Origin: Candidatus Omnitrophota bacterium | GTDB lineage: Bacteria; Ratteibacteria; UBA8468; MWAK01 | DNA length: 64,000 nucleotides | Assembly: GCA_043797665.1 (NCBI GenBank) | Contig: JAZDPL010000089.1 | Location: 33,972 to 97,971, forward strand | Direction of reading: 5' to 3' | Part shown: positions 19,972-47,955 of the stretch, one piece after another | Numbering within the stretch: position 1 is the stretch's first letter | How the letters are laid out: each line of letters opens with the position of its first letter | The notes under the pieces: model-generated | Seen by the model: only the letters and a program-made list of their open reading frames with translations | What the model was told of the DNA's origin: nothing | Database searches by the model: none | Position numbers and translations under genes: made by a program

Positions 19972-20149
19972 GTGGGCATCCTTTCCCTGACATCGCTACG
20001 GCGGCAATGCTCCGCCTCGTGGACAACGTTAGAACAATGCGTTCCGGACTATTCTCTCCTCGTAGACACGGGGTTTCGTGAAGCGGAGGAGAGGATGGGG
20101 AAGCGGAAGGTTCCGAACTGTTCTTCTCGTTAACACAGCGTGCATTTTG

Positions 20150-22585
20150 TCATGGGACGCTATTCCTGATTTGCAGTATTTCACCCCTGACGGTTTCGAT
20201 TTTCAGCAGTGGATCCTTGAATTGTTTCTCGCCGTGGACGCTGCTTTGGATCACGAACCCGGTCCATGGGAGGATCGCTCGCAGCGGATAACCCGCCTCG
20301 CTGATGATTTCAATCCATTGGGTCTCGCCGCGCTCAAACAGGGCACTGACGAGGAATGAACCGACTGCCCGCAGAGACTGGAATTCGGCTCGTTTGTTGC
20401 GCGGCCAGTTGGGGAAGAATCGCAACGTTCCGCTGTAACTCTGAAACAGGCACTCGTTGATGACAACGGGCAGCGCGAAATTCTCGAACCATATCCCCAT
20501 CCCCGTTCTGGAGTAAAAATCGAAGGGAGTGGTGTCGTCGTAACGTCCGTGCACCTGGAGTACCTTATCGGTGCACGTTCCGTTGGGGATGAGGCAGTAT
20601 TCAATCTGCCGTTTGAACCGCTCGAGATCGAGCAGGCCGAGCCGTGCGCCCTGAAGATTGAGAAAAACGAGTTCGTTGCCGCCCTCGTTGCGGTGGTTGC
20701 GGTAGGAATTCACCGCGATTTCAAACTCTTCGCGCGGCGAGTGCAATCCGTGGTCTTCTCCGGGAAAGACCGTCATCAAGCTGTTAGGCGTGTTGTATAC
20801 GATATCCGGATTCTCTCCCGGGACTGAGACGAAAACCACACCGCACCCTGATTCCGCCGTTGGATAGTCCGGGAAATAATCAAGCACTTCCTGCACGTCA
20901 CGAATCAGTGCCGCCTCTGTTTTCTCTCTTCCCAAAATCTCGCATGCCTTCAGGAAGGCTTTGAAGACGAATTTCGTCAGGGTCAGGTCAACCAGGCAGT
21001 CGAAATTGTTCTTGAACCCCGGACGTAATCCGTACAGTTCGGGATCTACGGTCGGGAACACGTGATATTTGTCATCGTTCCACTGCGGTCCGTGTGCCTC
21101 AGGTCGCTGCATGTAGTCAACGAGGAACAGCACTGCATCCCGGATGGGTTCGAAAGCACGGCGCTCAAGGAATGACCTGTCCTGGGTGTAGAGATAATGC
21201 CACCACAGGCTCTGCACCGTCCACGGTGTTTCGCAGATTTCCCAACCCCACGTCGGCACCGGATACGGGTTGGTGGTCATTTCGACGGGAAAGAATGAAT
21301 GCATCCCGTAGGCGCCGCGTAGGCCATAATACTCCCGTGCCCACTTTCGCTCGAGCGGCAGAACGCGCTCCACCATGTCAACATACGGCAGGTGCTTGTC
21401 CGGATGGTTGCCGGAGAACGTCGCCCAGAACGGCTGCTGGGCATTGTAGTTCATGTGATAATCGCCGTGCCATGCGGTACCGATGTCGCGGTAGCTCCAG
21501 TTGGCGAATAATCCCGGACAGGTGATTCCTTCCCTGACAGAACAGTTCAGAAAGTAGAAATTCCAGTACCAGGTGCGTTCCAGAAGATGGTCCTCGAGCG
21601 CGACCCCCGACCGGTTCCAGTATTCGCGCCATGTCTCTCGGCTCGCGTTGGATGCCTCCTCGAATGCGCTTTGCCTCGGATCCGGCAGGTTGCCGACATG
21701 CGTGGAGATTCCCGAAGCCTGACCTTCATCGAGTTGTACACAGGCAACGAATTCCGCTGCAGGACCGATGCTCCGTTCCAGGATCCCGGCCGTTTCCGGA
21801 ATCCCCGTCCAGGTGGCCGTCCTCATTCGCGATTCGAGAGGACCGTTCAGGGACACGGTGAGTCGGAATGCGCGATCCTTTGGATGTCCGTGCTTATCAT
21901 GCGCATGCGGTTCCTGAAACGGGAGTACCTGCCGGAAGGAGAGCATCGCCCCGGGCATCGGATCGGGCACTGTGAACGCGGGCAGATCAGGCGGCGTGGA
22001 AGGATCGGGAATCATCCGCACCCGGTCGAACGGGCTCTGTGCGGGTTTGCCGCCCTCATTCACCGTGCGCAGCCAGAGACGGTCCGCCTCCATTTCGACG
22101 AATACCTGTAGCATGACCGGTCTTCCCCCGACGAGCAATCGCACGTCGCACCGTCCGGTGGAGATATCGAGCGAGTAACCGAGTGCTTCCACGCTGCGGC
22201 GGTCGAAACCCAAAAGGAACGACCCGCACGGGAAGGGACGTGGGTAAGACTTGCGATAACTCCCGCTCATTTCGTTGAAATACTGTGCGCACCATGCATC
22301 CTCGTTGAGATCCCGGTACGTTGATGGAACCGCCTTCACCCGCTCGAACACCTGTTGAAACGTGCCGATTTTTTCCTTGTGATCTTCGGCGATACGAATG
22401 TCCCAGACATTGTTGTGGCCGAAGTGAACAACAATCGCATCGGGACGCACGCACACGATCGCACCCAGGCCCCCGTTACCGAGCACGGCACCTTCAAAGA
22501 AATCCACCGCAGGAGTCGTGCGAACGATCGGGTGCAGTGCCGCGTGTCCAACTGGGTCGAATGTTGAAAATGTATTTTTGTCCAT
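20150..22585 (-). CDS. Glycoside hydrolase, GH95-like (alpha/alpha)6 barrel
   Basis: Motifs LGNGGLGA, WHGDYHMNYN and INECLFQS..LRFFPNWP..F.SLRAVG.FLVSA. It is visibly GC-richer than its neighbours. Confidence 0.75.
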   Translation of the reverse strand: MDKNTFSTFDPVGHAALHPIVRTTPAVDFFEGAVLGNGGLGAIVCVRPDAIVVHFGHNNVWDIRIAEDHKEKIGTFQQVFERVKAVPSTYRDLNEDAWCAQYFNEMSGSYRKSYPRPFPCGSFLLGFDRRSVEALGYSLDISTGRCDVRLLVGGRPVMLQVFVEMEADRLWLRTVNEGGKPAQSPFDRVRMIPDPSTPPDLPAFTVPDPMPGAMLSFRQVLPFQEPHAHDKHGHPKDRAFRLTVSLNGPLESRMRTATWTGIPETAGILERSIGPAAEFVACVQLDEGQASGISTHVGNLPDPRQSAFEEASNASRETWREYWNRSGVALEDHLLERTWYWNFYFLNCSVREGITCPGLFANWSYRDIGTAWHGDYHMNYNAQQPFWATFSGNHPDKHLPYVDMVERVLPLERKWAREYYGLRGAYGMHSFFPVEMTTNPYPVPTWGWEICETPWTVQSLWWHYLYTQDRSFLERRAFEPIRDAVLFLVDYMQRPEAHGPQWNDDKYHVFPTVDPELYGLRPGFKNNFDCLVDLTLTKFVFKAFLKACEILGREKTEAALIRDVQEVLDYFPDYPTAESGCGVVFVSVPGENPDIVYNTPNSLMTVFPGEDHGLHSPREEFEIAVNSYRNHRNEGGNELVFLNLQGARLGLLDLERFKRQIEYCLIPNGTCTDKVLQVHGRYDDTTPFDFYSRTGMGIWFENFALPVVINECLFQSYSGTLRFFPNWPRNKRAEFQSLRAVGSFLVSALFERGETQWIEIISEAGYPLRAILPWTGFVIQSSVHGEKQFKDPLLKIETVRGEILQIRNSVP

Positions 22586-22839
22586 CACAAAAAAACATTT
22601 TAGTCCTGATAGCCTGCCTTGTTTATTATATTCTACTCCGCTGTTGTATCTATTTGTCAATAGACAAATCTGGCACAAGATTCTAACCCCTACCCCACCA
22701 TCCAGTCGCAATTAGTAGTTTTGACTTCTTTTGTCCGGAGGGATACAATTTAGACGCAAAGTTCTTTGAGAAGGCGAAGAATCTTTACGCAGCCTTTTTT
22801 TAAAAAATAGGATTAGCCTATTTAACCAGAGAGGTTTAA

Positions 22840-23199
22840 ATGAAAAAATTGTTAATAATTATTTTACTGCTAACTTTAATTTCTTTTTCTTCGGGATGTG
22901 GTGTGGCTTTGTTGGTTGGAGCTGGTGGATATGCCGAATCTCAAAGCCGCAAGGGAACTAAAGCAAAAGCCAAATATACTAAATTGTATAATAAATATAA
23001 GTTAAGGATGGAACAGATAAACCTGAACCGGGAAAAGGCAGGTTTGCAACCTAAGCCAATAATGAACTTTGAAGAATGGCTTAACCTGCAACCATTAAGT
23101 CCTGCAGAAGCGAATCTATTTGAAAAAACAGGGGTGCAAACACCAAAAGAAATAAAGGAACAAGAGAAAACAAGAACTGACACTTATATGCAGAAGTAG
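22840..23199 (+). CDS. Hypothetical lipoprotein
   Basis: Signal peptide with lipobox SSGC, a GAGG ribosome-binding site, and an upstream TTGACT-N17-TACAAT promoter. Confidence 0.7.
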   Translation: MKKLLIIILLLTLISFSSGCGVALLVGAGGYAESQSRKGTKAKAKYTKLYNKYKLRMEQINLNREKAGLQPKPIMNFEEWLNLQPLSPAEANLFEKTGVQTPKEIKEQEKTRTDTYMQK

Positions 23200-23206
23200 G
23201 AAAAAT

Positions 23207-23376
23207 CCTCGTGGACAATGTTAGAACTATCCTTCAACGGTCAAATGCATATATTCACATACCCGATTTAGCGCCACGAGCTTAGTTTGTCTTAATTATA
23301 GAAGTTTACCCTACCCTGCCACTCACTATATCTCTATTTTGATGGCTCACCTTCCCCACTATCCAGTCGCAATTAG
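23207..23376 (+). repeat. Cassette boundary repeat type B (att-like site + tail LVDNVRTILQRSN.YIHIPDLAP + motif Y)
   Basis: About 170 bp, with near-identical copies at 33348, 35971, 43214 and 44616. Confidence 0.9.
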
Positions 23377-23462
23377 TTTTGGCGTTAGGATGTTGACCCT
23401 GGAACGCAGGAAGAAGTACAATCTGGAAGGAAAACATTTAACGGAAACGACCACCCGGACCA

Positions 23463-25493
23463 ATGTCAAACCGCAACATAGAATCAGGTAAATTTGTCTC
23501 AAAAAGTCCTCGGCCGTATCGGCCCTCAACCCTTGTTGCCGTAATCGCCATCTGCCTTTTAGGTATTCTCATCTACTCCAATACCTTCCACGCCTCGTTC
23601 CATTTTGATGATGAACAAAATATTCTTACCAATGCTGCCATCCGTAACCTCTGGAACCTGAAAGCCATCTGGGATTTCGCTCCCACCCGCTTCTTCACCT
23701 ACCTTTCCTTATCGGTCAACTACCATCTTCATCAGTTATCTACCCCCGGCTACCACATATTCAACCTGGCGGTCCATCTGGGCTCGGCTATCTTAGTCTA
23801 CTGGTTTATCCTGCTAATTTTCTCCACCCCTTATTTCAGATCCTTCCCGCGTTGCGGGCTTGATAAATCAAGCCTCTACACCCCAAATGTAGGGGTTCAA
23901 TTTATTGAACCCGAAGGTAGGGTGAGAAACCTCCTGGCGTTATTTAGCGGTCTGCTCTTTGTCTGCCACCCGGTCCAGATCCAGGCGGTAACCTACATCA
24001 TCCAGCGTACCGCTTCTTTGGCTACCTTCTTTTACCTGCTTTCCGTCTGTCTCTATCTAAGAGCAAGATTAAACCAGGCACAAAAACCGGATTCCCCCTG
24101 CTGGTTAAGGTTCTATGCCGGTTCAATCCTATCTGCGGTTGCCGCCCTCTTTACCAAAGAGATGGCCGTTACCCTGCCGTTTATGCTTTTGCTTTGCGAG
24201 GTTTCTTTCTTTCGGGATAATCTCAAGAACACCGCTAAACGGCTCGCGCCGTTTTTTCTTATCCTGCTAATAGTTTTGATAAACATCAAGGTAACCGGGT
24301 GGTCGGCTAAATTTTCAGAGGCAAGGCTCTTACAGGAACCCCAGTCCGGCCTAACCGCCATCACCCCGGCCCAGTATCTTTTCACCCAGTTCAGGGTGAT
24401 TGTGACCTACATCAGGCTTTTGCTGGTACCGGTAAATCAAAACCTGGACTACGACTATCCAATCAGCCAAACGCTATGGCAAGTGCCCACCGTAACCAGT
24501 CTTATCTTTCTTTTGTTGCTCCTGACAGCCGGCTTTCTCCTGTTCCGGAAGTACCGGTTGATATCTTTTAGTATCTTCTGGTTCTTTCTGACCATCGCCC
24601 CGGAATCCAGTATTTTTCCTATCAGGGATGTTATCTACGAACACCGGCTCTACCTGCCTTTGGTCGGTTACAGCCTATTTTTGCCGGTTGCCGCCTATGT
24701 CTTGTTTGGAAACAGAAAATTAAAACTAATGATAATCATTCTCCTGTCCATAATCGCCTGCTATTCGGTGATGACCTATAGCCGCAACCGTGTCTGGAAA
24801 GACGAGCTAACCCTGTGGAGCGATGTGATGCGCAAGTTTCCGAATAAGACACGGCCGGCTTATAACTTGGGAGTGACTTATGCCGCTCTGGGCCGCTACC
24901 AGGAAGCAATTGATGCTTACAAGCAGGCAATCCGTATTAAACCGGATTATGCAGAGGCGCACTACAACCTGGGAGTGGCTTATTTCAAACTGGGCCGCTG
25001 CCAGGAAGCAATTGATGCTTACAAGCAGGCAATCCGCCTCAAGCCGGATGATGCCCCTGAGTACAACAACCTGGGAAATGTTTACGCCAGAGTGGATCGC
25101 TACCCGGAAGCGATTGACGCTTACAAGCAGGCAATTCGTATCAAGCCTGATTTCGCAGAGACGCGCTACAACCTGGGAAATGTTTACGACAGAGTGGGTC
25201 GCTACCCGGAAGCGATTGACGCTTACAAGCAGGCAATCCGCCTCAAGCCGGATGATGCCCCTACGTACAACAACCTGGGAAATGTTTACGCCAGAGTGGG
25301 TCGCTACCCGGAAACGATTGACGCCTACAAACAGGCTATCTGTATCAAACCGGATCTGGCAGAGGCGCACTTCAACCTGGGAGTGACTTATTTGAAGCTT
25401 GGTGATAAGGGTTCTGCCTTGGAAGAGTATACGATTCTCAAAGACCTGAACGGCGATTTAGCCAACAAATTGTTTAATACAATTTACAAATAA
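23463..25493 (+). CDS. TMTC-like membrane glycosyltransferase with TPRs
   Basis: Motifs FHFDD, YHIFN, HPVQIQAVTYIIQR, TKE and YEHRLY. Near-identical 102-bp TPR repeats occupy ~24860-25380. Confidence 0.85.
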   Translation: MSNRNIESGKFVSKSPRPYRPSTLVAVIAICLLGILIYSNTFHASFHFDDEQNILTNAAIRNLWNLKAIWDFAPTRFFTYLSLSVNYHLHQLSTPGYHIFNLAVHLGSAILVYWFILLIFSTPYFRSFPRCGLDKSSLYTPNVGVQFIEPEGRVRNLLALFSGLLFVCHPVQIQAVTYIIQRTASLATFFYLLSVCLYLRARLNQAQKPDSPCWLRFYAGSILSAVAALFTKEMAVTLPFMLLLCEVSFFRDNLKNTAKRLAPFFLILLIVLINIKVTGWSAKFSEARLLQEPQSGLTAITPAQYLFTQFRVIVTYIRLLLVPVNQNLDYDYPISQTLWQVPTVTSLIFLLLLLTAGFLLFRKYRLISFSIFWFFLTIAPESSIFPIRDVIYEHRLYLPLVGYSLFLPVAAYVLFGNRKLKLMIIILLSIIACYSVMTYSRNRVWKDELTLWSDVMRKFPNKTRPAYNLGVTYAALGRYQEAIDAYKQAIRIKPDYAEAHYNLGVAYFKLGRCQEAIDAYKQAIRLKPDDAPEYNNLGNVYARVDRYPEAIDAYKQAIRIKPDFAETRYNLGNVYDRVGRYPEAIDAYKQAIRLKPDDAPTYNNLGNVYARVGRYPETIDAYKQAICIKPDLAEAHFNLGVTYLKLGDKGSALEEYTILKDLNGDLANKLFNTIYK

Positions 25494-25701
25494 GTGACTT
25501 TCCCGTTGACTGGTTTTCGTTTTTATTTTCAAGCCATATTCTGACAGGTGATTATCTATCCAGTCTCCTCTGCCAACATAAGAAACCTTTTTCGGCAAAC
25601 AAACCATCATACGGGTGCAATTAGTCTTGGCCGCAACGTCGATTCCTGAAAACTATATTGTTTAAAGCACAAAGCGATTTTTGGGGGTTAATTTGAGTAT
25701 A

Positions 25702-26676
25702 TTATTGCTGAAGCAAAGAGCCAATCTGGCTAAAATACCTGAAATAAAACGAAATGACGATATATCCGACGTAAACCGCAATCAGCAGATAGACAATCAC
25801 CGGCAACATTGCAACGAGCCGTTCGGTCCCAGTTTCAACCTCATGTTCCATGTAATTGATCACCCGTGTAAGAGTCTCGTCCATTTTCCCGCTCATTTCC
25901 CCGATGCGCAACATCTCAAGGAGCATCGACGGGAAATAAGGATTGAGCGCAAATACTTCTGATATATTCCCGGATTCTTCCAGCCGCGGAACCATCTTGA
26001 GCGTTTCGCGTTCTATAACCGAATTCCCCATCGTCTGAGCCGCTATTTGAACCGCTCTTATTATTCCGATTCCGGCAACATATAAACAGACAAATGCCCG
26101 GAGAAAACGGAGTAACACAACCCTTTTCACCAGCGGTCCTACAACAGGCAAATTGATAATAATGCCGTCTAACCAAGAACCAAAAGCAGAAAGAGAGCAC
26201 AACTTTTTCGGCAAAACCCCGAAAACAAAAATAGCAGCATAGAGAATAGCCAGAGCAGGTAATGTCGTGCCAAGGAAAGCTCCCAACCCTCTGGAAATAA
26301 GGTTTGGTACTGCCGGAATGATAATTGCCGCATGGAGAAGCATCGCCGGATATAACAGACCGCTTATAAGTTTGGCCCTTGCACGGTGAAGAAAATCGAA
26401 GTAATCTGCCAGTTTCTCAAGAACATCCGGGAGTGTCCCCGAGGCCTCTCCGGCACGCATAATTGCCACCTCAAAAGGACTGAAAATACGGGGAGAAAAG
26501 TGCAAGAGGGCTTCGGTAAGCGACTTTCCTGAAGATATCCGGTCACAGAGAGTCAGAGTAACAGCAGCATCAAAACCCGTAGTCCTGATGGTTCCCAGAG
26601 CGTTCAAAATAGGCATCCCTGCCTTCAACATTACGCCCAACTGCCGGTAAAAAAGCGCTTTCGTCTGATATCTCAT
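25702..26676 (-). CDS. Type II secretion system F / PilC family protein
   Basis: Two T2SSF repeats: FYRQLGVMLKAGMPI..AGEASGTL and IGEMSGKMDETL. Confidence 0.88.
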   Translation of the reverse strand: MRYQTKALFYRQLGVMLKAGMPILNALGTIRTTGFDAAVTLTLCDRISSGKSLTEALLHFSPRIFSPFEVAIMRAGEASGTLPDVLEKLADYFDFLHRARAKLISGLLYPAMLLHAAIIIPAVPNLISRGLGAFLGTTLPALAILYAAIFVFGVLPKKLCSLSAFGSWLDGIIINLPVVGPLVKRVVLLRFLRAFVCLYVAGIGIIRAVQIAAQTMGNSVIERETLKMVPRLEESGNISEVFALNPYFPSMLLEMLRIGEMSGKMDETLTRVINYMEHEVETGTERLVAMLPVIVYLLIAVYVGYIVISFYFRYFSQIGSLLQQ

Positions 26677-26806
26677 ACCACTCCCTGCCCCCGAAGTTGC
26701 TATCAGCCAAATAAAGCAATTACTGACGAGTCTTCAGCAATAATCCTCTTGTATTATACCACCATCCTGTCGCAATTAGTCTTCTTCCCACAATCCCATT
26801 GACAGT

Positions 26807-26846
26807 TGTAACTAAAAAAGGTACAATTGTACCTAAAATGGGTACA
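26807..26846. promoter_or_regulatory. Tandem palindromic operators overlapping a TTGACA-N17-TACAAT promoter
   Basis: Palindromes TGTAACTAAAAAAGGTACA and TGTACCTAAAATGGGTACA. Confidence 0.65.
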
Positions 26847-27449
26847 AGAAACAAGGAAACGAGTTTATCTGCTGTTTTGTTCGGTAAAACCCGTCGGGCA
26901 GTTCTTTCCTTACTCTACGGTCACGCCGACCAGGCATTTTATCTGCGCGAGATTATCCGTAATGCCGGCGTTGGTCCGGGTGCTACCCAGCAGGAAGTAA
27001 AACAACTTTCCGAAGTCGGGATTATTAAGCGCACGGTTAGGGGACGCCAGGTTTATTACCAGGCAGATTCTGATTGTCCGATTTTCAATGAACTCAAAAA
27101 TCTTGTAACTAAGACTGTCGGGATGGCGGATATTTTAAGAAATTTCTTAACGCCACTTGCAGACCGTATTATAGCGGCGTTTATCTACGGTTCCGTTGTT
27201 CGCGGAGAAGACCGCAACGGGAGCGACGTGGATATATTGGTGGTGGGAGATATCGCTTTTACGGAAGTCTCCTCGGCTCTTTCCGGTGCCCAAAAGATAC
27301 TTTCCAGGGAGGTCAACCCCAGCGTATATCCCATCGCGGAATTTCGCACAAAATTGGCGAACGGACATCATTTCCTCAAATCTGTTATAGGCCAGGATAA
27401 GATTTTCCTGGTTGGAGACGAAGATGAGCTTAAGAGATTGGTTAAGTAA
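26838..27449 (+). CDS. HTH + minimal nucleotidyltransferase (MNT-type antitoxin)
   Basis: N-terminal winged HTH followed by the Pol-beta motif YGSVVRGEDRNGSDVDILVVG. Confidence 0.85.
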   Translation: MGTRNKETSLSAVLFGKTRRAVLSLLYGHADQAFYLREIIRNAGVGPGATQQEVKQLSEVGIIKRTVRGRQVYYQADSDCPIFNELKNLVTKTVGMADILRNFLTPLADRIIAAFIYGSVVRGEDRNGSDVDILVVGDIAFTEVSSALSGAQKILSREVNPSVYPIAEFRTKLANGHHFLKSVIGQDKIFLVGDEDELKRLVK

Positions 27450-27575
27450 CGGATGGCTGATTGAGCACAAATTTTATTGACCAATTCGATTCTTTCCGTA
27501 AGAAAAGGAATATCGGCGGTTATGAACGGGCTGGTTTAGTATCTGATCAGGAAGCAACCGAGATGCTATCTCAGG
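27424..27575 (+). pseudogene. Internally deleted HEPN-like toxin remnant
   Basis: MSLRDWLSNGWLIEHK overlaps the MNT stop. It is followed by FDSFRKKRNIGGYERAGLVSDQEA (HEPN-like R-x-Y motif), with most of the gene missing. Confidence 0.6.
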
Positions 27576-27679
27576 GGTGGCTCCCATCACCGGAATCAGT
27601 GGCTCCTTTGACCGGAATACGCAGATAAATAGCCCGAATTTGAGTTACAGACTTGGTTTTCCCCCATTTTTTAGTGTTG

Positions 27680-27767
27680 AGGGAGAGTTGGACGCGTTCG
27701 AACTGGAACCTGGCTTAAATACCCCTTTTTTGTTATTCCCCCTACCCCACCATCTAGCCGTAATTGA
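27680..27767 (+). repeat. Boundary repeat type C, direct repeat flanking the Fic gene
   Basis: GAGGGAGAGTTGGACGCGTTCGAACTGGAAC.TGGCTTAAATACCCC..., with a second copy at ~28934-29026. Confidence 0.85.
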
Positions 27768-27865
27768 TTTTGACTTATCCCGATTGAAGAGCAAATCTAA
27801 TGATGAGCAACAATTATGGAAACAATTAGTTGACAATTAATGCTTCGTTCATATAGAATATAACT

Positions 27866-28891
27866 ATGGAAATTTCATATTCTCCCAAATTTGAACGGTC
27901 AGCACGGTTGATCCAACATTTGACCCAAGCTTCAAGTCTGTGTGCATGGATTCAGGAACAAGCTATAGATGTTTCCTGGATTGCGCCTACCCAGCGAGAT
28001 GCTCTCGTACGATTAGCGCATTATTCTACACGTATTGAAGGGAATCCTCTGACCCTCCCTGAAGTAGAAGCACTCGCCATGGGTAAGGATTTGGCTGTTG
28101 AGGAGCATGCTAAACGAGAAGTGTTGAATTATTTTGCTGCACTCCGGTGGATCTGGACAAAAAGTCCAACTTATACAATTGAAGAAAAAGAACTTCTTAA
28201 TCTCCACAGACTCTTAACACAAGGGTTACTTCCTTTATCAGAATCCGGGACTTATAAGACAAAACCCAATGCTGTCTTCAAGGATAGTCGTATAATCTAC
28301 AAACCCCCGCCTCCGGAAGCATCTCCGATTCTTACCTGCAGCTTATTAAAATGGCTTAATTCCAACGAAGCAAGAGACGAACATACCGTTATCGTGGCTG
28401 CTATAGCCCACCATCGCCTTGTGTCAATTCACCCATTTCTGGATGGAAATGGCAGAGTCGCAAGAGCCTTAGAATCCTGGCTTCTTTATCATCGAGGTTT
28501 TGATACTTATCATATCTTCGCTCTCGATGAGTTTTTCGAAATTGATCGCGAACGATACTACAACGAGATTCAGAAGGTACGGAGGCAAGAAGAAAATCTC
28601 ACCTCGTGGTTGGAATACTTGGGCGAAGGAATTGTAGAAACTCTTAGAAAGACCCAACGCCGTATTCAATCTATACGTACCAAAATGCCAATCACAAAAT
28701 TTACCTTGAACCATCAACAAGAAAGAATTATGCGTATCCTTGGTGAAGTGCCAAAGATTAGCGGAGGTGAACTGGCAAGATCATTGGGTATATCCCGAAG
28801 CCATCTCAGTAAAGTGTTGAGCCCCCTTGTTAAAACCGGATTAGTCATAAAGGAAGGATCTACCAAGGCAGCGATATACCGACTTACCTAA
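27866..28891 (+). CDS. Fic family protein with C-terminal HTH
   Basis: Canonical HPFLDGNGRVAR motif and the inhibitory-type STRIEGN motif. Confidence 0.95.
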   Translation: MEISYSPKFERSARLIQHLTQASSLCAWIQEQAIDVSWIAPTQRDALVRLAHYSTRIEGNPLTLPEVEALAMGKDLAVEEHAKREVLNYFAALRWIWTKSPTYTIEEKELLNLHRLLTQGLLPLSESGTYKTKPNAVFKDSRIIYKPPPPEASPILTCSLLKWLNSNEARDEHTVIVAAIAHHRLVSIHPFLDGNGRVARALESWLLYHRGFDTYHIFALDEFFEIDRERYYNEIQKVRRQEENLTSWLEYLGEGIVETLRKTQRRIQSIRTKMPITKFTLNHQQERIMRILGEVPKISGGELARSLGISRSHLSKVLSPLVKTGLVIKEGSTKAAIYRLT

Positions 28892-29123
28892 AATTAAGCC
28901 AGCCGTCTTAGATTTCCGCGTTCCCTCGGTCAGGAGGGAGAGTTGGACGCGTTCGAACTGGAACTTGGCTTAAATACCCCTTTTTCTTGTTATCCCCCTA
29001 CCCCACTCCCATGCTGTCGCAATTAATTTTGACCAGGGGAGGAAAAACGTAGTATACTTTATGGTGGTTAGGCTGGAACCGGCTAAAATTTAACTTTTTG
29101 AAGCTAATGTGTTACGAGGAAGC

Positions 29124-29763: not shown

Positions 29764-29819
29764 ATCCAAAGGCGAATCGAATCGCTGGAGAAGGGGTTTG
29801 TTTCCAAACGAATTGAGTC

Positions 29820-30080: not shown

Positions 30081-30163
30081 CTATTACCTCCAGACCTCTA
30101 AAAGCCTCCCAGAATCGATTTTCGAGGTGTTCTTGGAGGTATGTAAACCGTTGTTTAATTTCC

Positions 30164-40007: not shown

Positions 40008-40548
40008 TTATGCCCCCCATATTTTTTTACCACCACAAACTATTAATTGCATTATTATATTTTTTGTTGCCATATAATAGTCAATAATATCTGCCAGCTT
40101 TTTTAAGGAAGAGGTGCTTGAAATAGAATAACATCCTCCATTTGCCCATTAAAAAGAAATATTTTAGCCTAATTTCCTGCTTTACTTATCCTTGATTTTA
40201 CTCCAATATATCTATGGTGTCAATTAAAAAGCTCCAAATTTTTATTCCTAAATACCCCAAAACTCTGTTTTTATGTCAAGGTATAAATTCCGCCGCAAGG
40301 TAGCCACCCGTACAGAACGCATATCGGCAAAGATTTCTTGAAAGTGATATTAGAGATACCACCTCCGAGGAGATTCTACGCCAGGACAATGCGTAGCTGC
40401 GTAGGATTGTTGAGATTGCCACGCCTGCTTACGCAGGCTCGCAATGACAGAACTGGTTTTGCTCCGGTGGCAGGACAGCTTTAGAACCTATGATTGGACT
40501 CAAGCCATTCCTTTCCCTGACGTCGCTATAAACCAAATAAAGCAGTTG

Positions 40549-41583
40549 CTAACGAGCGTTCACTGAAAAAGATGGGACAGCATACCTGACAGATTTGTAC
40601 TGACCCACCCTGACAACCACACCGTATTTAATAAGTGGCTTAAGTACATAATGTGCACCGGGAATGGTTGTTCTGATTGCTCTGGCTATATCACGAATGC
40701 TCATTATTCCTCGCTCCTGCAGAATCCGTAAAAGTTTTTCCTGTTTCAGAGTAAGTGATATATGTGTTTGTGTGGTAATACCGGTTGATAATATGCGGCT
40801 ATAAACTCTTTCCAGGGCTTCCAATATTGTTTCTGACATAAATTCTAACCATGCTTCAAGTGGATATTTTTCTACCTGAACCCGTTGGAGGTTTTTAATA
40901 TAAAGATTTCGGTTTTCAAGCAGGACCTCATCAAGCGAAAAGATATGCAATGTATCAAACCCTCTGTGGTATAATTCCCAGGTTGCCAGTGCTCTTGCAC
41001 ATCTGCCATTGCCGTCCCTGAAAGGGTGAATATTTACAAACTGTAAATGTAACAACGAGGAAGTAAAAACAGCAGGAATTTCTTTTGACTTATTATTTAA
41101 CCAATCGAGCAATTCTTTCATTAAACCAGGAACCTGCCGTCGGTTAGGAGCGGAATAAATACCGGCGGTTACATTTACTCTCCTGTACTCACCGATCGGG
41201 CCTTCGTCAACAGCGTCTGCCGCTATAATCTTATGAATCTGCATAATGTCTTTTTCCAGTAAAACAGATTTCTTTTCATTTTTGGTTACCCATTGAATCG
41301 CATCTATATAATTCTTAGCCATTCTGATATGTTTCTCAGGATAACCGAAAACTTTTTTGCCTTCAAACAACGATTTCACTGCATCCATGGAAAGTGTGCA
41401 CCCTTCTATGGCTGTGGAACCATGAGCAGAACGAATTACAGCATCACGAATTAACGATGGCATCCAGGCAAGTTTTACACTTGACGTCTCTATTTTTGAA
41501 CGAAGTTCGGTGATTTTTTCTAATAGTCCTAACGTTCTATTATTAATCTTGAAAATGGGTTGCCACATGTCATCCTCTTGCAT
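40549..41583 (-). CDS. Fic family protein with C-terminal HTH
   Basis: Motifs HPFRDGNGRCAR and STAIEG. It is a paralog of 27866-28891, sharing YHRGFDT.HIF.LDE. Confidence 0.95.
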   Translation of the reverse strand: MQEDDMWQPIFKINNRTLGLLEKITELRSKIETSSVKLAWMPSLIRDAVIRSAHGSTAIEGCTLSMDAVKSLFEGKKVFGYPEKHIRMAKNYIDAIQWVTKNEKKSVLLEKDIMQIHKIIAADAVDEGPIGEYRRVNVTAGIYSAPNRRQVPGLMKELLDWLNNKSKEIPAVFTSSLLHLQFVNIHPFRDGNGRCARALATWELYHRGFDTLHIFSLDEVLLENRNLYIKNLQRVQVEKYPLEAWLEFMSETILEALERVYSRILSTGITTQTHISLTLKQEKLLRILQERGIMSIRDIARAIRTTIPGAHYVLKPLIKYGVVVRVGQYKSVRYAVPSFSVNAR

Positions 41584-42056
41584 AAAGTTTACATAAAGTG
41601 TTGCCTAAAGTCAAATGGCAGGAAGAAAATAACTTTCGACTTTTCAACGTTAATCTAAAATAGGGAAGGTCAGTACGTCGCTACGGCGGCAATGCTCGGG
41701 TGGCAGGACAGCTTTAGAACCTATGATTGGGCTAAAGCGTTCCCTTATCCCGAAGTGAGTTTATCACAAATTAGGCAATTATTGGCACTCGCCTGATATT
41801 TCGGGGGGAATTCTTCCCCTACCCTGTCACTCACTATATCTCTATTTTGGTGGCTCACTTACCCCCACCATCCAGTCGCAATTAGTTTTTCCCGTGCAAT
41901 TTTAATTGACAAATAGTTACACCGGAGTAAAATATGATAGATAATGGTATCAGGCTAAAATATCTCTTTTTGATGGGCAAATAGAGGATGTCAGTTAATG
42001 ACTGTGGATTTTCTTAAGGAGAGCTTCGGTGACCTTAAAAGGAATAAGGCGGTGGA

Positions 42057-43076
42057 ATGAAAAAACTGAAAATCCGTGAGTTAACCATTGAAGTTATCTC
42101 CCTGTTGATTGTCTTCTCAGCCGGGTTCCTTGTCGCCCATAAAGTCGCCGGCAGAACCGGCAGCGTGTGGTTGGGAATTTTAGCGGGCTCGCTAACCTTC
42201 CTGGGAATCTTTTACGGGTTAACTCAACTGGTGAATCGAACCTGTCACCCGGCCAGAAGGAATCCCCTTTCCAATCCATCGGCAGAACCCTCGGGAACGG
42301 CTGCCCCTCTAAATGCGGGGGAGGCAGTCGGCTTTCTGCTTCTCTTCCTGGTCGGATACCTTACCGGACACTTCGTCGCCGGCCGGAGCGGCAGCGTGTG
42401 GTGGGGAGTTCTGGCCGGTTCGCTCACCCTCATAGTAATATTCGTTGCCTTGATACGGCTTTATCTGCGGATACAGGCCGGACCGTCAACTTCCGCACCT
42501 TCGTCTCCATCATCTCCGGACCAGGAACTCGCCTGGGCAGAACCAAGAGCCTTTAGAAGCGCGGACCTGGAGGATTCCAAAAAGTGGGTGTTTAACATGG
42601 TCCTCCTGATTGCCGGTGTCGCCCTTATCTTCATCTGTATCGCCAACCGGTTTGGGGCCGGGGCGGAGGTAACCCGAAAACTTTTGATAACCGCCGGAGG
42701 CCTCATCGCGTACTTCTTCGTCCTTCTTGGTTACACCAGGCTGATGAGCATCATCGTAAAGATTACCGACAAGGCCGTTGTCCGGGAGATGGGCGACTCT
42801 CCGGCCGTCTACCAGTTTGGAACCATTGACCATTGCGAAATCGGCCGGATGATGGTCAAGAACCAGATATACTCTATACTTGTGGTCGCACTCAAGCAAG
42901 GCGACCGGGAACTGTTCTGCGTTCATCCCTCAATTTCAACCGACGTTCTGCGCTCAACACTGGAACACCGGGGAGTGAACGTCGTGATAAGGACCGACAT
43001 GTTGAGCGAGGAAGCCCTCAAAAGCGAGGATGGAGACCCCCTCGTGATTCAGCAGCGGGCCGGGAACAGACCGTAG
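42057..43076 (+). CDS. Hypothetical membrane protein with an internally duplicated TM hairpin
   Basis: The segments VAGRTGSVWLGILAGSLT and VAGRSGSVWWGVLAGSLT are duplicates. Confidence 0.7.
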   Translation: MKKLKIRELTIEVISLLIVFSAGFLVAHKVAGRTGSVWLGILAGSLTFLGIFYGLTQLVNRTCHPARRNPLSNPSAEPSGTAAPLNAGEAVGFLLLFLVGYLTGHFVAGRSGSVWWGVLAGSLTLIVIFVALIRLYLRIQAGPSTSAPSSPSSPDQELAWAEPRAFRSADLEDSKKWVFNMVLLIAGVALIFICIANRFGAGAEVTRKLLITAGGLIAYFFVLLGYTRLMSIIVKITDKAVVREMGDSPAVYQFGTIDHCEIGRMMVKNQIYSILVVALKQGDRELFCVHPSISTDVLRSTLEHRGVNVVIRTDMLSEEALKSEDGDPLVIQQRAGNRP

Positions 43077-43486
43077 TTACCCTACAAAAATTGATTTTTT
43101 ACAAAATACAGGATAAGAGTTTAATTCCATTTTTCCGTAGTGAGATTTTGATGCATTTTTAGAGGCAGTCCAAAATAAAAAAATAGGTGGGTTATGATAA
43201 CCAAAAACTCGTGGCTCCGCCTCGTGAACAACGTTAGAACTATCCTTCAACGGTCAAATGAGTATATTCACATACCCGATTTGGCGCCATGAGATTAGTT
43301 TGTCTTAATTGTAGAAATTCACCCTACCCTGCCACTCACTATATCTCTATTTTGGTGGCTCACATTCCCCACCATACAGTTGCAATTGACGTTGACCCTA
43401 TCTTGACCCGGTTTTTGCGAGGTGGTAACATTTGGGTAAATTGGGAAAAATCTTTCGTGAACTTAATGGACGCTAATATTTAAAAA

Positions 43487-44548
43487 ATGAAACTTGAAGA
43501 TTTAGGTTATGGTACATTTGAGTCCAACCTGAAAAAATTGGATTTGGATGGCTGTTTAGTTGCACGAGTTATTGCCGAATATAAAGAGGCTTACAGAGTA
43601 AGAAGCGTAACCGGAGAATATCTGGCAAAAATAACCGGAAAACAAATGTTTAATGCTCTGTCGAGGGCAGACTATCCTGCTGTGGGTGATTGGGTGGCCA
43701 TAACCGAATTAAATAAAGAACAAGCGGTAATCAATAGAATATTGCCAAGGAAAACTATATTAAGAAGAAAGTACAGCAACAAACAAGAAAGTCAGATTAT
43801 TGCGACAAATATTGACGTTGCGTTCGTTATCGAATCCGTTGACAGGGATTATAATCTCAATCGTTTTGAAAGATATTTTGTTTTGGCAAGAGATGGGAAC
43901 ATCAAACCGGCTATTGTATTAAATAAAATCGATTTGGTTTCAGACGCAGAATTGAACTTAAAAATGGACCAAATAAAAGACAGATTTAACGATGTCGATA
44001 TTATTCTAACCAGCGCTATTGCTGAACGGGGGTTAGATAAATTAATGAGATACATAATAAGGGGGAAAACATATTGTTTCCTTGGTTCGTCCGGGGTGGG
44101 AAAATCGTCGTTGATAAACAAATTACTGGGAAGGAACTCCATAAAAATTAGAGAGATAAGCCGTCGTACCGGAAGAGGTAAGCATGCTACTACAAGTAGA
44201 GAAATATATTTTTTGGAAAACGGAGGAATCGTAATTGATAATCCAGGAATGAGAGAAGTTGGTATGGCGGACTCGGGTGCTGGAATAGAGGATGTATTTG
44301 ATGAAATAACCTCTTTATCAAAAAATTGTAAATATGTTAATTGTACACATACGCACGAGCCGGGTTGCGCCGTCTTGGACGCCGTTAAATCCAAAGAGTT
44401 GGATGAGAATAAATATTCGAATTACGTTAAACTGAAAAAGGAAACCGAATATTATAGTATGACAGAACTTGAAAAAAGAAGAAAAGACCGCCAGTTTGGA
44501 AAATTTGTGAAAAAGACTTTGGAGCAATTAAAGAAATACGAAACCTGA
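43487..44548 (+). CDS. rsgA: Ribosome small subunit-dependent GTPase A
   Basis: Motifs AVGDWV, NKID, GSSGVGKSSLIN, GKHATT, DNPG and CKYVNCTHTHEPGCAV. Confidence 0.95.
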   Translation: MKLEDLGYGTFESNLKKLDLDGCLVARVIAEYKEAYRVRSVTGEYLAKITGKQMFNALSRADYPAVGDWVAITELNKEQAVINRILPRKTILRRKYSNKQESQIIATNIDVAFVIESVDRDYNLNRFERYFVLARDGNIKPAIVLNKIDLVSDAELNLKMDQIKDRFNDVDIILTSAIAERGLDKLMRYIIRGKTYCFLGSSGVGKSSLINKLLGRNSIKIREISRRTGRGKHATTSREIYFLENGGIVIDNPGMREVGMADSGAGIEDVFDEITSLSKNCKYVNCTHTHEPGCAVLDAVKSKELDENKYSNYVKLKKETEYYSMTELEKRRKDRQFGKFVKKTLEQLKKYET

Positions 44549-44856
44549 TTATTGGATTCTAACGTTTTGTTAGGGGGTCTCTGGAAATGCAGGAACAGTG
44601 CGGTTCTTGGGTTTGGCTCCGCCTCGTGGACAACGTTAGAACTATACTTCAACGGTCAAATGAGTATATTCACATACCAGATTTAGCACCACAAGTTTAG
44701 TTTGTCTTAATTATAGAAATCCACCCTACCGCGCCACTCACTATATCTCTATTTTGATGGTTCACTTACCCCACCATCCAGTCGCAAGTAATTACTGATA
44801 ACGGTCAACGAATTTGACTACCCATAGAGAAGGTGGTATGCTTTAAGAGGTGAAAA

Positions 44857-45075
44857 ATGAAACCGATAGATTATACTCCGATTGAAAAAAAGGAAAAGTA
44901 CCGGGGCAAGTTTCTTGCCGTAAAAGAATCACGTGGCAAAGTTACAGTCATCGCTTTTGGTAAGGATCTAAAGAAAGTCATTGACGAAGCCCGGGCCAAA
45001 GGGTGTAAAGTACCCCACATTACCAGGGTAGCGGCAAAAAGACCCACCGCCGTTGTCTTTTACAATGCTTCTTAA
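44857..45075 (+). CDS. DUF5678-like small protein
   Basis: Pattern KYRGKFLAV..VIAFGKD. It is a paralog of 32631. Confidence 0.75.
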   Translation: MKPIDYTPIEKKEKYRGKFLAVKESRGKVTVIAFGKDLKKVIDEARAKGCKVPHITRVAAKRPTAVVFYNAS

Positions 45076-45463
45076 ATTCCCTTACGTTTCCAGAGGGGGA
45101 ATTTACCGGCCCGTCATTCCCGTGTCTTTTCCCACTTCCGGCAACGGCCGATTCGTGACAGACGGCTTAATTGATTCTGGAGCGCCGTGGTGTCTTTTTC
45201 CGGGCCACGTTGCAACAGTCCTCGGTCACAACACCTCAAAAGGACGGCGGCCGCACCGAATGATAATAGGGGGGTCGCAGGTTCTGTCTTACCTGCATAA
45301 AACAAAGGTTTGGGTGGAAGGAAAAGACTTTCTCTGGGACATCTACTTCTCGCACGATATTGACGATTGGGAATTCGGGGTATTAGGCCAGGAGCCCTTC
45401 TTTTCAAACTTCCAGATTACTTTTAACTACCCGAAGAAAGAAATTGTTTTAGAGCCCCTTTAA
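45065..45463 (+). CDS. Retropepsin-like aspartic protease
   Basis: Motifs RPVIPV, GLIDSGA and GVLGQ..FF. Confidence 0.85.
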   Translation: MLLKFPYVSRGGIYRPVIPVSFPTSGNGRFVTDGLIDSGAPWCLFPGHVATVLGHNTSKGRRPHRMIIGGSQVLSYLHKTKVWVEGKDFLWDIYFSHDIDDWEFGVLGQEPFFSNFQITFNYPKKEIVLEPL

Positions 45464-45507
45464 ACCATCAATCTCTTCTTCCATTTTATTCAAGTCATTG
45501 CGGACCC

Positions 45508-46494
45508 TTACGCCGCATTTTTACAGAATACTTTTATTATTTCAAAAAGAAACAATCTTCTTATAGCATCATATCCACGGTCATTCGGGTCTTCAAAATT
45601 GCAAAAGTACCAATAATGAGGGTCTTCTTTTCGGTAATACCTGTTGTGCTTGTCTCTGCAATGAATTCCATGTCCCAAGAAAGACGAATATATGTCTACC
45701 AGGTGGACATTTTCATAAGAACTGCATACTTCAGAAATGATTCCGTTGAATAAAGCAAGTACCTTTAATCCATCCGGCCATGGGGTGAGTTGAAAACCCG
45801 CGTTCTTTATATTGCCGAGGCCAATTCCATCAGTCGGATCGTACACATTTGCCACAAAGATCTCGCAACCACCTGGAAATTTACCGATAACTCCTTCAAT
45901 AACGCCTTTAAGCCTGTTTCTGAAACTATTTTCCCATTTCAATGCTTCCTGATACGTACAACCATACATTGCTCCGTCTCTTGGCGGTGATTTCCCGTAA
46001 TCATGGATGAGGTCATTGCCTCCAGTGGTAATCACGACGATTCCCTTCACGCTGGCAGGAAAAACCTCTATTTGTGGAATCTGATTCCTCAGGTGTTCTT
46101 CTGAAACTGTATAGTTCTCAGAATAATTGGAAAATTTCAGATTTGGAAAAACATGCTTCAAATCACGGCCTTTCATATCCGGATATTGAGAATCATCATT
46201 TTCTGTTAAAAGCTCAAAATAGCTGTGTTTTTCAGAAGACCCAAAACCTTTTGTAATGCTATCCCCCAAACCAAGAAGAATTATCTTGTCGGCTGACCAA
46301 ATATGTTTGAAGGGAACAATGTTGATCGAAGGACCCGCAGGACCGGTGCCGGCAGGAAGGTAGAATCTTCCCACCAGGCAATGCCAGCATAAAATAAATA
46401 AAGTAAATAGTACAACTCCAATTTGCCATCGGAACGAATACCATTTTAATTTTTTCTTAACACTTAATCCTTTTTTTCTCATGCTTCCGAACAT
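45508..46494 (-). CDS. SGNH/GDSL hydrolase family protein
   Basis: Motifs LGDSIT, GGNDL and DPNDRGY (the His of DxxH is apparently replaced). Confidence 0.85.
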   Translation of the reverse strand: MFGSMRKKGLSVKKKLKWYSFRWQIGVVLFTLFILCWHCLVGRFYLPAGTGPAGPSINIVPFKHIWSADKIILLGLGDSITKGFGSSEKHSYFELLTENDDSQYPDMKGRDLKHVFPNLKFSNYSENYTVSEEHLRNQIPQIEVFPASVKGIVVITTGGNDLIHDYGKSPPRDGAMYGCTYQEALKWENSFRNRLKGVIEGVIGKFPGGCEIFVANVYDPTDGIGLGNIKNAGFQLTPWPDGLKVLALFNGIISEVCSSYENVHLVDIYSSFLGHGIHCRDKHNRYYRKEDPHYWYFCNFEDPNDRGYDAIRRLFLFEIIKVFCKNAA

Positions 46495-46831
46495 TTCTGA
46501 ATCTGGACTGAAACAAATGCCGGGTTTAGAAAACCCGGCGTCTTGCGGTTTTCAACTCCTTACCCTCAACTAATGTTAGCACAGGTCAAAACCTTTTTAC
46601 AACCGTCACTATAGGTACCCGACATTTCGGGTAAGGTTGCCAAAGCCTTTATCTACCAACGGCTTCCAACTGTTACATACCCCACCGTGCCGTCGCAATT
46701 AATGTGGCTTTAGGAAGTTGACCTTAGAACACAGGAAGAAGTACAATCTGGAAGGGAAAACATTGCCCAAACAAGCAGCCCAGACAGGTTATCTCTAACC
46801 TGTCTGTCCAAGGATAGGGGTTCACTACAAA

Positions 46832-47863
46832 ATGCCTCAAACTAAAATAATTTGCACTTTAGGTCCGGCGTCAAACCAAGCGGGTGTCCTCCTCAAAATG
46901 ATGCGTGGGGGAATGGATGTGATAAGGTTAAACTTTTCCCACGGAAGCCTCCCGGAACATCTTCATCGGATACATCTGGTAAGAGAACTAAATAAAAAAT
47001 ATCACCGGCAGATAAAGATATTAGGCGATTTGGAAGGTTATCGGATAAGGGTCGGGAAACTTCAAAGGGGAGCGCCTATTACCGTCAAGAAAAACCAGAC
47101 CGTTTGGTTAACAACCCGGAATATCTCAGGAACCGGTAGTTTCATTCCGTTTGATTATCACGGTCCTTTAGCTTCGGTTAAAAAAGGCCAGCATATTTAT
47201 ATTGATGATGGTAACATTTCCTTGCTGGTTGAATCTTGCGAGGAAAAGTGTTTGAAAACCAGGGTGATTATTCCGGGATTAATCAAAGAACGTAAAGGAA
47301 TTAACATGCCGGGTGTTCCGTTAAACTTTAAAGGGTTGCTACCAAAAGATAAGGAAGATATCAACTTTTGCATAAAAAATAAAATCGACTATATCGCACA
47401 GTCTTTTGTAAGGAACAAAGCCGATATTCTCATCCTGAGAGAATATCTCACGAATTGTCCGCATAAATTACAGATCATTGCAAAAATTGAGAATAGGGAG
47501 GGCATTAGAAACGTTAAAGCGATAATCAAAGTTTCCGACGGGATTATGATTGCCAGGGGTGATATGGGCGTATCCGTCCCAATATACGAAGTTCCTGTAA
47601 TTCAAAAAGAGATCATTAAAAAATGTAACCGGTCAAAAAAATTTGTCATTACCGCTACGCAAATGTTGGAAAGCATGACCGAAAACCGTATCCCTACAAG
47701 AGCGGAAATTTCAGACGTAGCCAATGCCATACTGGATGGATCGGATTATCTAATGCTTTCTGCGGAGACTGCAATTGGATTGTATCCTGCAGAGTGTGTT
47801 GAGGTAATGAACGAAACAATTAAGTTTACAGAAAAGTATATTTCCAATCACGGGACCGCGTGA
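46832..47863 (+). CDS. pyk: Pyruvate kinase, short form lacking the C-terminal regulatory domain
   Basis: Motifs TKIICTLGPA, RLNFSHG, AKIE, MIARGDMG, ATQMLESM and MLSAETA. Confidence 0.93.
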   Translation: MPQTKIICTLGPASNQAGVLLKMMRGGMDVIRLNFSHGSLPEHLHRIHLVRELNKKYHRQIKILGDLEGYRIRVGKLQRGAPITVKKNQTVWLTTRNISGTGSFIPFDYHGPLASVKKGQHIYIDDGNISLLVESCEEKCLKTRVIIPGLIKERKGINMPGVPLNFKGLLPKDKEDINFCIKNKIDYIAQSFVRNKADILILREYLTNCPHKLQIIAKIENREGIRNVKAIIKVSDGIMIARGDMGVSVPIYEVPVIQKEIIKKCNRSKKFVITATQMLESMTENRIPTRAEISDVANAILDGSDYLMLSAETAIGLYPAECVEVMNETIKFTEKYISNHGTA

Positions 47864-47883
47864 TCCACCAAAGGTGGGTTTAG

Positions 47884-47955
47884 CTCCGGTGGTAGGATTC
47901 GAACCTACAACCTACTGGTTAACAGCCAGCCGCGCTACCCTTGCGCTACACCGGA
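47884..47955 (-). tRNA. tRNA-Asn(GTT), 3' end GCTA rather than GCCA
   Basis: Cloverleaf TCCGGTG...CTGGCTGTTAACCAG...GGTTCGAATCC..CACCGGAG. Confidence 0.95.

Follow-up and report, generated by a model that had tools for sequence, protein, structure and literature searches.

How did some fifteen short gene units come to be stacked, one behind the other, on the 3' side of a single tRNA-Asn gene in the genome of a Candidatus Omnitrophota bacterium? The units lie in a stretch of 64,000 nucleotides (hereafter the window; assembly GCA_043797665.1, contig JAZDPL010000089.1, positions 33,972 to 97,971) and are delimited by co-oriented repeats, which a preliminary description of the locus had read as attachment (att) sites formed by the tails of serine recombinase genes and had likened to the sites of an integron. 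Comparison of the repeats with recombinase genes, with the 46 tRNAs of the genome and with related genomes leads us to conclude that the region between 18.1 and 47.9 kb of the window is probably a genomic island, built at tRNA-Asn by the serial integration of tRNA-targeting elements of a large serine recombinase (LSR) family, and that the repeats are the att scars of these events. The assembly comprises 2.69 Mb in 93 contigs and is 86% complete.

The anchor of the array is tRNA-Asn(gtt) (47883..47955, minus strand), the sole tRNA-Asn found in the assembly with ARAGORN, which would constitute the proximal, terminal att site and has its 3' end towards the array. The island itself, of about 15 units, is visible as a region of low GC content (18100..47882), the right edge of which is the tRNA 3' end and the left edge of which is approximate: GC is 0.385–0.47 in 2-kb bins between 18 and 48 kb (with a single bin at 0.565), as against about 0.48–0.52 on both flanks. 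The 5' side of the tRNA (48012..49193) carries genes for an aconitase-C-like small subunit and a nitroreductase together with tRNA-Arg(tct), and is syntenic in another genus and in a congener. The division of the region into units of 1–3 kb, each with 1–3 unrelated genes, was described correctly. The array was also said to stop at the tRNA; the tRNA is indeed the terminal site, but it does not abut the last repeat (44616), which is 3.27 kb away. The tRNA 3' end does read CTA rather than CCA, which means only that CCA is not encoded; the tRNA is 99% identical to that on a congener contig, which is likewise without CCA.

All 12 co-oriented sites recognized previously bear the described motif on the plus strand, with the left end complete at ten of them and shortened at 23207 and 33348. 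Three further sites were found, namely a partial family-B tail (26681–26737) and two sites of a third type, C (27690 and 28945). Repeat finding and alignment divide the original twelve into family A (~175 nt; 20009, where only the core is present, 23207, 33348, 35971, 43214 and 44616) and family B (~110 nt; 30027, again core only, 32297, 34923, 37306, 40461 and 41694), and the repeats are mutually 85–92% identical. A heptamer common to all sites occurs in 14 plus-strand copies between 20 and 48 kb, two of which fall in promoter modules; this amounts to 0.5 per kb, compared with 0.046 per kb genome-wide. The cores of families A and B have no copy outside the locus in the assembly, and the repeats are linked to the tRNA, as had been proposed. 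Diverged copies of the tails are present on two other contigs of the same genome, C44 and C90. Chance resemblance or misassembly, for which only the repeat-rich nature of the region speaks, is extremely improbable given that the heptamer is enriched about eleven-fold, always on one strand, and that the same structures occur in independent assemblies.

Read in frame, the sites give a short peptide up to a stop, and no site is joined to a long frame. The family-A peptide is L-R-L-V-D-N-V-R-T-I-L-Q-R-S-N-E-Y-I-H-I-P-D-L-A-P and the family-B peptide L-x-W-Q-D-S-F-R-T-Y-D-W...I-P-x-P-E-V...Q-I-K-Q-L-L. Judged from sequence comparison, the repeats are the in-frame last 30–35 codons of LSR genes and contain the predicted att site. 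The identity of the tails can be seen directly in longer genes: full-length LSRs end in such tails, as the preliminary description had supposed. A 97-codon frame on C44 ends in the tail and matches the C-terminal part of P0001 (E 4.7e-24), a fragment of 202 aa for which no Pfam domain is recorded and the end of which resembles the ends of full-length LSRs. A 153-codon remnant of a relative leads to seven full-length proteins of 489–542 aa, all seven with Resolvase and Recombinase domains. Two of these, P0004 and P0005, have a family-B-type tail, four have an ending of the 'W-L-R-R-x-D-S-N' kind and one is cut short; from their motif, rather than from DNA, the four may be read as antisense tRNA. 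At metagenome loci found with P0004, the L051 LSR ends in a P0004-type tail and the L062 LSR ends LAFQNSFRTYNW.. (L-A-F-Q-N-S-F-R-T-Y-N-W), close to family B of the window, LAWQDSFRTYDW. In the congener G001, the LSR on L033 (Resolvase and zinc ribbon) ends WWALVEDVRTFY.. (W-W-A-L-V-E-D-V-R-T-F-Y), with a further site ~190 nt downstream. The intact LSR with an ending of the L..D.(V/F)RT kind, which had been predicted, thus exists, since the congener L033 LSR carries such an ending; P0004, P0005 and the L062 LSR are further examples.

The individual sites, all on the plus strand, were delimited by repeat finding, alignment and translation. The most distal one (19980..20035) consists of a family-B tail stump followed by a family-A core, with likeness ending directly after the shared heptamer. 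Next come a left-truncated family-A site with a dispersed module and a promoter module behind it (23199..23377), the partial family-B tail, which retains only the distal half (26681..26737; tblastn), and the two copies of the type-C site (27652..27730 and 28907..28985), each a tRNA-3'-end-like piece with no tail coding. The family-B core at 30025..30057 loses its likeness a few bases past the heptamer, and the tail frame of the family-B site at 32297..32407 is broken by a 1-base deletion. The family-A site at 33345..33518 reads LRIVNNVRTILQRSNEYIHIPDLAP.. and then a stop. At 34861..35034, a pseudogenised LSR remnant of ~26 codons (34861–34922, with stops, from an F-E-P motif), recognized by comparison with LSR ends, is followed by a family-B site, and at 35900..36142 an LSR 3' remnant (35900–35970) is followed by a family-A site. 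Family-B sites are also found at 37306..37417, at 40461..40572, where the first 15 bases on the left reproduce the tRNA-Asn 3' end with one mismatch and are followed by the LSR tail L.WQDSFRTYDW...QIKQLL and a stop, and at 41694..41886, where two mismatches to the tRNA-Asn end are seen and a dispersed module with a 22-base box follows. The last two are family-A sites on either side of rsgA, one directly upstream of the gene (43212..43385) and the other preceded by an LSR 3' remnant that starts 6 nt past the rsgA stop (44554..44787). An inverted core at 37178 was rejected as a site; according to the congener copy, it represents the first codons of the gene at 36858–37187.

LSR genes that run into tRNA genes indicate where recombination might take place. 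In the genome under study, the LSR on contig C75 ends inside an antisense tRNA-Gln(ctg). Among five LSR frames in relatives, three have a tRNA-His end, one lies near tRNA-Ser(gga) and one has a free tail; among 14 metagenome loci, the gene directly after the LSR, on the opposite strand, is tRNA-Asn in two and tRNA-Tyr in three. An LSR at the edge of its element was seen among the relatives and on C75 (P0004–P0008, L033, C75, L028, L055 and L057). Free and tRNA-fused LSR endings share their residues as far as an Asp codon and diverge beyond it, at a point equivalent to the first base of the T loop in the tRNA. Insertions of ~100–170 nt are found directly after tRNA-Pro(ggg) in the same genome (C63, about 38600–38850) and after tRNA-Ser(tga) in a relative (L020, 6019–6139), and both have a direct repeat at each end that spans the tRNA from its T loop to its 3' end. 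In appearance they are empty units of this recombination system, and they point to the same crossover region as the LSR endings. The family-B crossover would accordingly be expected at the start of the T loop, and that of family A probably lies 6–7 bases inside the acceptor stem. No second copy of the tRNA-Gln end, which would mark the far end of the C75 LSR element, was found within the C75 contig. The genome contains two tRNA-Gln(ctg) genes, which are 95% identical and located at unrelated loci (C75:24599–24672 and C44:7518–7589); the C75 gene, overlapped by the LSR, encodes CCA, and the C44 gene, at the head of an array, does not.

The left halves of the sites were scored over the 15 bases preceding the family-specific part against the tRNAs of the genome. 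Site 40461 has one mismatch to tRNA-Asn (next best tRNA, four) and site 41694 has two (next best, four), whereas the variant shared by 32297, 34923 and 37306 has four and is slightly closer to tRNA-Arg(cct), with three. The 30027 variant differs from tRNA-Asn at two of 15 positions in the alignment, outside the scoring against the 46 tRNAs. Past the first six bases, family A is no nearer to tRNA-Asn than to other tRNAs. The resemblance to the antisense tRNA-Asn 3' end that had been ascribed to the sites in general is therefore strong for 30027, 40461 and 41694 but limited to the first 4–6 bases in the others. The match quoted between 40461 and the tRNA at 47883 is exact when aligned with one 5-base gap in the T-loop region; since an ungapped search with the tRNA-end 23-mer, allowing up to three mismatches, returned only the tRNA itself, the likeness is a gapped one. 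The same dependence on the local tRNA is observed in other arrays. Family-B sites of the C44 and C90 arrays have no mismatch to tRNA-Gln over the 15 bases, and in another genus family-A sites open with tRNA-His acceptor bases in an array ending at tRNA-His and with tRNA-Asn bases in an array at tRNA-Asn. The tRNA-Asn form of the family-A start is also present in a third metagenome-assembled genome (MAG), which brings the tRNA-Asn arrays to three in all.

The family-A repeat was detected in four of 41 related genomes searched, the present one included, and the LSR remnant in seven of 65 genomes of the class. In the other genus with a tRNA-Asn array, the 5' flank of the tRNA (aconitase-C-like gene, nitroreductase and tRNA-Arg) is syntenic with 48012–49193 of the window, and on the 3' side a GIY-YIG gene and a 161-aa open reading frame (ORF) are followed by a single family-A tail antisense to the tRNA. 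In the congener, the tRNA-Asn and its 5' flank are kept and the sequence beyond the tRNA 3' end is wholly different, beginning with the very first base, and a B-type tail lies 2.1 kb from the tRNA. The comparison across relatives that had been proposed thus places the breakpoint exactly at the tRNA 3' end, and supports the description of the array as a series of insertions downstream of it. The geometry recurs: tails lie antisense to and downstream of the 3' ends of tRNA-Asn and tRNA-His in the other genus, tRNA-Asn in the congener, tRNA-Gln on C44 and tRNA-Ser in other MAGs. An exact 26-base family-A pattern matches four contigs of MAGs titled Candidatus Saccharibacteria (GC 35–39%; assignment by title alone), and on two of the four the tail lies ~1 kb downstream of the 3' end of tRNA-Ser(tga).

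Some components of the repeats have a life of their own. The distal half of the family-A repeat, the 22-base box, present in 36 copies on 17 contigs, and the promoter module all occur without tails elsewhere, and a 127-nt version of the promoter module is 83% identical in another genus, where it precedes an unrelated gene, for a methyltransferase. These facts would fit a set of spacer and promoter modules that are used repeatedly and reshuffled through homologous recombination or gene conversion, with the tails being passive copies of one old insertion. We consider this explanation unlikely, as it does not account for the match of the left halves to the local tRNA in three different arrays, for the constant antisense placement downstream of tRNA 3' ends or for the fusion of related LSRs to those same tRNAs.

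Which enzyme could have acted at the locus? No recombinase domain was found in the 52 of 61 window ORFs that were scanned, in line with the earlier statement that no integrase gene sits beside the tRNA. No LSR body was detected in any unit of the window, and tblastn with four LSR queries returned tails only. The 86%-complete assembly yielded no LSR directed at tRNA-Asn; the only two LSRs that it contains are fused to comM (C37) and to tRNA-Gln (C75). The former (C37:3064–5994; loci L001 and L003) is an intact LSR with Resolvase, Recombinase and zinc ribbon that runs straight into a 3' fragment of comM (Mg-chelatase-like), and its element is therefore integrated in comM. The C37 LSR was considered as the enzyme acting in trans and rejected, since the fusion identifies comM as its target. 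The six tyrosine recombinases of the genome are all on other contigs. Four tyrosine recombinase genes (C1, C78, C52 and C65) lie within ~0.2 kb of tRNA-Lys, tRNA-Thr, tRNA-Met and tRNA-Phe, so that classical integrases use other tRNAs of this genome.

The search for an integron integrase was also negative, with a best match in the genome of 85.5 bits against a cut-off of 265. A true integron, or an integrase-less attC cluster, would agree with the layout in small units and with an inverted copy of the core ~60 nt upstream of three window sites and one site in a relative, which together could form an attC-like hairpin. However, the inverted arm is absent at 11 of the 15 window sites, and where it is present (three of 15) it corresponds to the F-E-P codons of the LSR remnant. 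The array genes, moreover, lie on both strands, about ten of 27 on the minus strand. We reject the integron reading as next to impossible: the integrase test failed and the attC-like arm is a pseudogenised stretch of ~26 LSR codons from the F-E-P motif. The analogy with an integron drawn in the preliminary description holds for the layout only; besides having genes in both directions, the array includes rsgA and pyk, and islands of this kind, integrase-less members among them, have already been described.

We infer the following order of events for serial integration at tRNA-Asn. The att site of an element would lie within the last 30–35 codons of its LSR gene, which would read outward across the junction, so that the gene would end in antisense tRNA when the element is integrated beside a tRNA and in a 'tail' when it is free or beside another element. 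Each new integration would displace the previous junction away from the tRNA. A scar would then be composed of a tRNA-3'-end-like left half, the remainder of the tail and the conserved left end of the next unit, often with a promoter module. The present units would be LSR-less derivatives, either fixed or at best mobilisable by a related LSR, and homologous recombination between 85–92% identical repeats may have brought rsgA and pyk into the array. The preliminary description had supposed non-autonomous cassettes, inserted singly by a recombinase in trans, which the present evidence leaves doubtful. In sister arrays, truncated LSRs of 97, 153 and 307 codons are still attached to tails, so that some units at least would have arrived with their own LSR and lost it afterwards.

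This rival model nevertheless deserves consideration. In it, LSR-less mini-cassettes with a short att site (a tRNA-end mimic plus the tail codons) would have been captured serially at tRNA-Asn by an LSR encoded elsewhere and acting in trans, which would make the locus a functioning platform for gene capture comparable to an integron. All 15 units lack an LSR body and their left edges are sharp. The same F-E-P-truncated LSR stump precedes the sites of four units that differ in cargo and belong to two genera, which suggests that it spread once truncated. In other MAGs, several sites directly follow a terminator-like hairpin, as would be expected of a displaced tRNA end; a DUF5678 gene pair recurs right after a site in three places and after an LSR junction in a fourth; and the cargo (Fic, nucleotidyltransferase pairs, DUF4143 ATPase) is typical of cassettes. 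Mobilisation of integrase-less islands by accretion is also allowed for in the literature (PMC3146451). Yet the assembly offers no LSR for tRNA-Asn, its two LSRs being fused to comM and tRNA-Gln, and the truncated LSRs on tails in the sister arrays have the appearance of decay in progress. The tails are interrupted by a frameshift (32297) and by stops, use of many of the left halves would render the tRNA inactive, and neither circles nor empty sites were in evidence. The hairpin past the tRNA is common to another genus, and one cargo pair lies at a congener tRNA-Pro without a tail on the visible side. Capture in trans is, on this evidence, possible but rather doubtful. The same tentative standing applies to its wider form, in which an LSR in trans would stack LSR-less cassettes at tRNA 3' ends (Asn, Gln, His and Ser) across Omnitrophota and beyond, and, within that form, to the suggestions that the tail codons serve to keep a neighbouring LSR gene complete and that core genes such as rsgA can be captured.

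Serial integration of LSR-bearing elements at tRNA-Asn, which we favour, has difficulties of its own. Every unit of the window is now without an LSR body. The repeats begin abruptly on the left, either at the tRNA-end position or at the F-E-P codon (in three units and in one of another genus), and the same stopping base each time is not what independent decay would lead one to expect. The left half of 32297, 34923 and 37306 would not restore the acceptor stem of tRNA-Asn, and those of family A would not restore the T stem; given the proposed crossover, the sites therefore cannot all have been the tRNA end. The single-copy genes rsgA and pyk are located inside the array. In the congener, the cargo pair at 36322–37187 lies downstream of tRNA-Pro and lacks a tail on the side that can be seen, and cargo must therefore move by other routes too. 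Another genus has the same hairpin just beyond the tRNA, which agrees poorly with recent insertion at the tRNA itself. Finally, no excision or circle junction was seen in public reads at a depth of ~2–4.

These reads come from three public groundwater runs of one study, which gave 5–7% of sampled words and contigs mostly of 150–300 nt, at a depth of 2–10, from this and related organisms; the depth of the organism itself was only ~2–4. Fifteen listed read joints link repeat modules in other combinations, for instance the end of a 136-aa gene with a family-B site, but as their sides are only 25–48 nt long (one of 126 inside rsgA) at 85% likeness, they were not counted as evidence. The hairpin repeat at 40412–40452, beside site 40461, also flanks the tRNA-Asn of the congener (C159; 27/27 and 30/35 bases), where the copy holds a nested 26-base hairpin insertion. 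In one groundwater run this hairpin reaches a depth of ~390, compared with ~5 nearby, and because it is thus multi-copy we give it little weight as a marker of 40461 as the displaced original tRNA end.

How does the array compare with known systems? Integrons share with it an ordered set of small gene units between recombination sites at a fixed chromosomal anchor. They differ in that no IntI, no attC hairpin sites and no common promoter are present here, where several units carry a promoter-like module of their own and genes lie on both strands. The archaeal integrases of the SSV type are tyrosine recombinases with attP inside the integrase gene, which is split on integration; an att site within the recombinase coding sequence and a tRNA-gene target are common to both systems, but here only the last codons of the recombinase would be exchanged. 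Cis-mobilisable elements of the ICESt1/ICESt3 type consist of att-bounded DNA without a recombinase of its own, in tandem with related elements. The units of the window are likewise flanked by att sites and devoid of recombination or transfer genes; no conjugative partner is seen, however, and mobilisation is only putative here. To our knowledge, the known cases of cis-mobilisable accretion have one or two units.

The closest parallel is found in Dehalococcoides, where the LSR DsiB inserts ssrA islands at the tmRNA gene and the 3' end of the gene for DsiB always overlaps the att site (McMurdie et al. 2011, PMC3146451). The likeness extends to the T loop of a t(m)RNA gene as the point of insertion, to several tandem downstream islands bounded by repeats of the 3' end of the target gene, and to islands without an integration module that are discussed as cis-mobilisable. 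In the window, the LSR 3' end overlaps the att site, and the tRNA gene together with repeats of its 3' end delimits the units, which all lie on its 3' side; an LSR at the element edge is not seen. The present targets are ordinary tRNAs (Asn, Gln, His, Ser and Tyr) instead of tmRNA, and the units are far smaller (1–3 kb), more numerous (~15 in 30 kb) and all without recombinase. The repeat includes a conserved coding tail and a promoter module, not just 20 bp, and the second small recombinase and six-gene integration module of the ssrA islands are not seen here. Repeated integration at tRNA genes, with partial tRNAs and broken integrases in the islands, is also described for the Prochlorococcus tycheposons, of which 910 of 937 elements have a tyrosine recombinase and the rest an LSR (Hackl et al., bioRxiv 10.1101/2020.12.28.424599). 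Growth next to the tRNA that pushes older elements inward and an adaptive or defensive cargo are shared features, whereas the enzyme family differs: theirs is mostly a tyrosine recombinase, and ours an LSR with the att site in its coding tail.

A limited literature search, which is no proof of absence, did not turn up any account of LSR-tail arrays at ordinary tRNA genes. What is distinctive here is the combination of LSRs on several ordinary tRNAs, an att site readable as a protein tail and an unusually dense set of small, integrase-less units. In an uncultured phylum, it would appear, serine recombinases can seed and enlarge islands at ordinary tRNA genes, a role commonly played by tyrosine integrases. 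With the att site in the last codons of the enzyme, the scars become readable as protein tails, so that metagenomes can be searched in a simple manner for such islands and for their recombinases. An LSR family whose natural att sites lie in several different conserved tRNA genes may also interest those in search of integrase tools. If the units did prove mobile in trans, they would represent a second, independent invention of an integron-like cassette system.

Two core genes stand among the cargo. The single-copy rsgA, for the ribosome small-subunit GTPase (43487..44548, plus strand; Pfam), lies between two family-A sites; in two relatives it is found at another location without tails, its neighbours differ across all three genomes compared, and in one relative it is 1.2 kb from tRNA-Ser(tga). 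The single-copy pyruvate kinase gene pyk (46832..47863, plus strand; barrel domain) lies between the last site and the tRNA, behind the promoter module at 46699–46760, and in one relative is 8 kb off, on the opposite side of tRNA-Asn. The position of both genes could be due to capture or to rearrangement between the 85–92% identical repeats. A DUF5678 gene with a 136-aa partner (44857..45463, plus strand) directly follows a site, as does a second such pair (32592–33271), both assigned by Pfam; including a congener tail, the pair directly follows a site in three places, and the fourth occurrence, immediately beyond the end of comM and thus behind the LSR/comM junction of C37, is 59–63% identical to 44857–45463.

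The remaining units, between 20150 and 43076, have genes on both strands that were assigned by Pfam. They encode a GH95-like hydrolase, a TPR protein, a T2SS-F-like protein, a methyltransferase and a metallophosphoesterase, along with two nucleotidyltransferase sets, two Fic/HTH proteins, a DUF4143 ATPase, C39 and trypsin-like peptidases and several family-less ORFs. Two TPR proteins (18196–19971 and 23463–25493) contain internal repeats of 102 nt (34 aa); this family has at least eight further copies, many at contig ends, and probably breaks the assembly. The promoter-like module, made of two hexamers and an end resembling a ribosome-binding site, is present at 18131–18192, 23374–23435, 31056–31117 and 46699–46760, in front of four unrelated genes that include pyk. 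Often just upstream of it is the 22-base box, which in the window occurs at 22689–22716, 23350–23377, 26753–26780, 41859–41886, 44765–44792 and 46676–46703, and of which no copy was found in shuffled sequence of 20 contigs.

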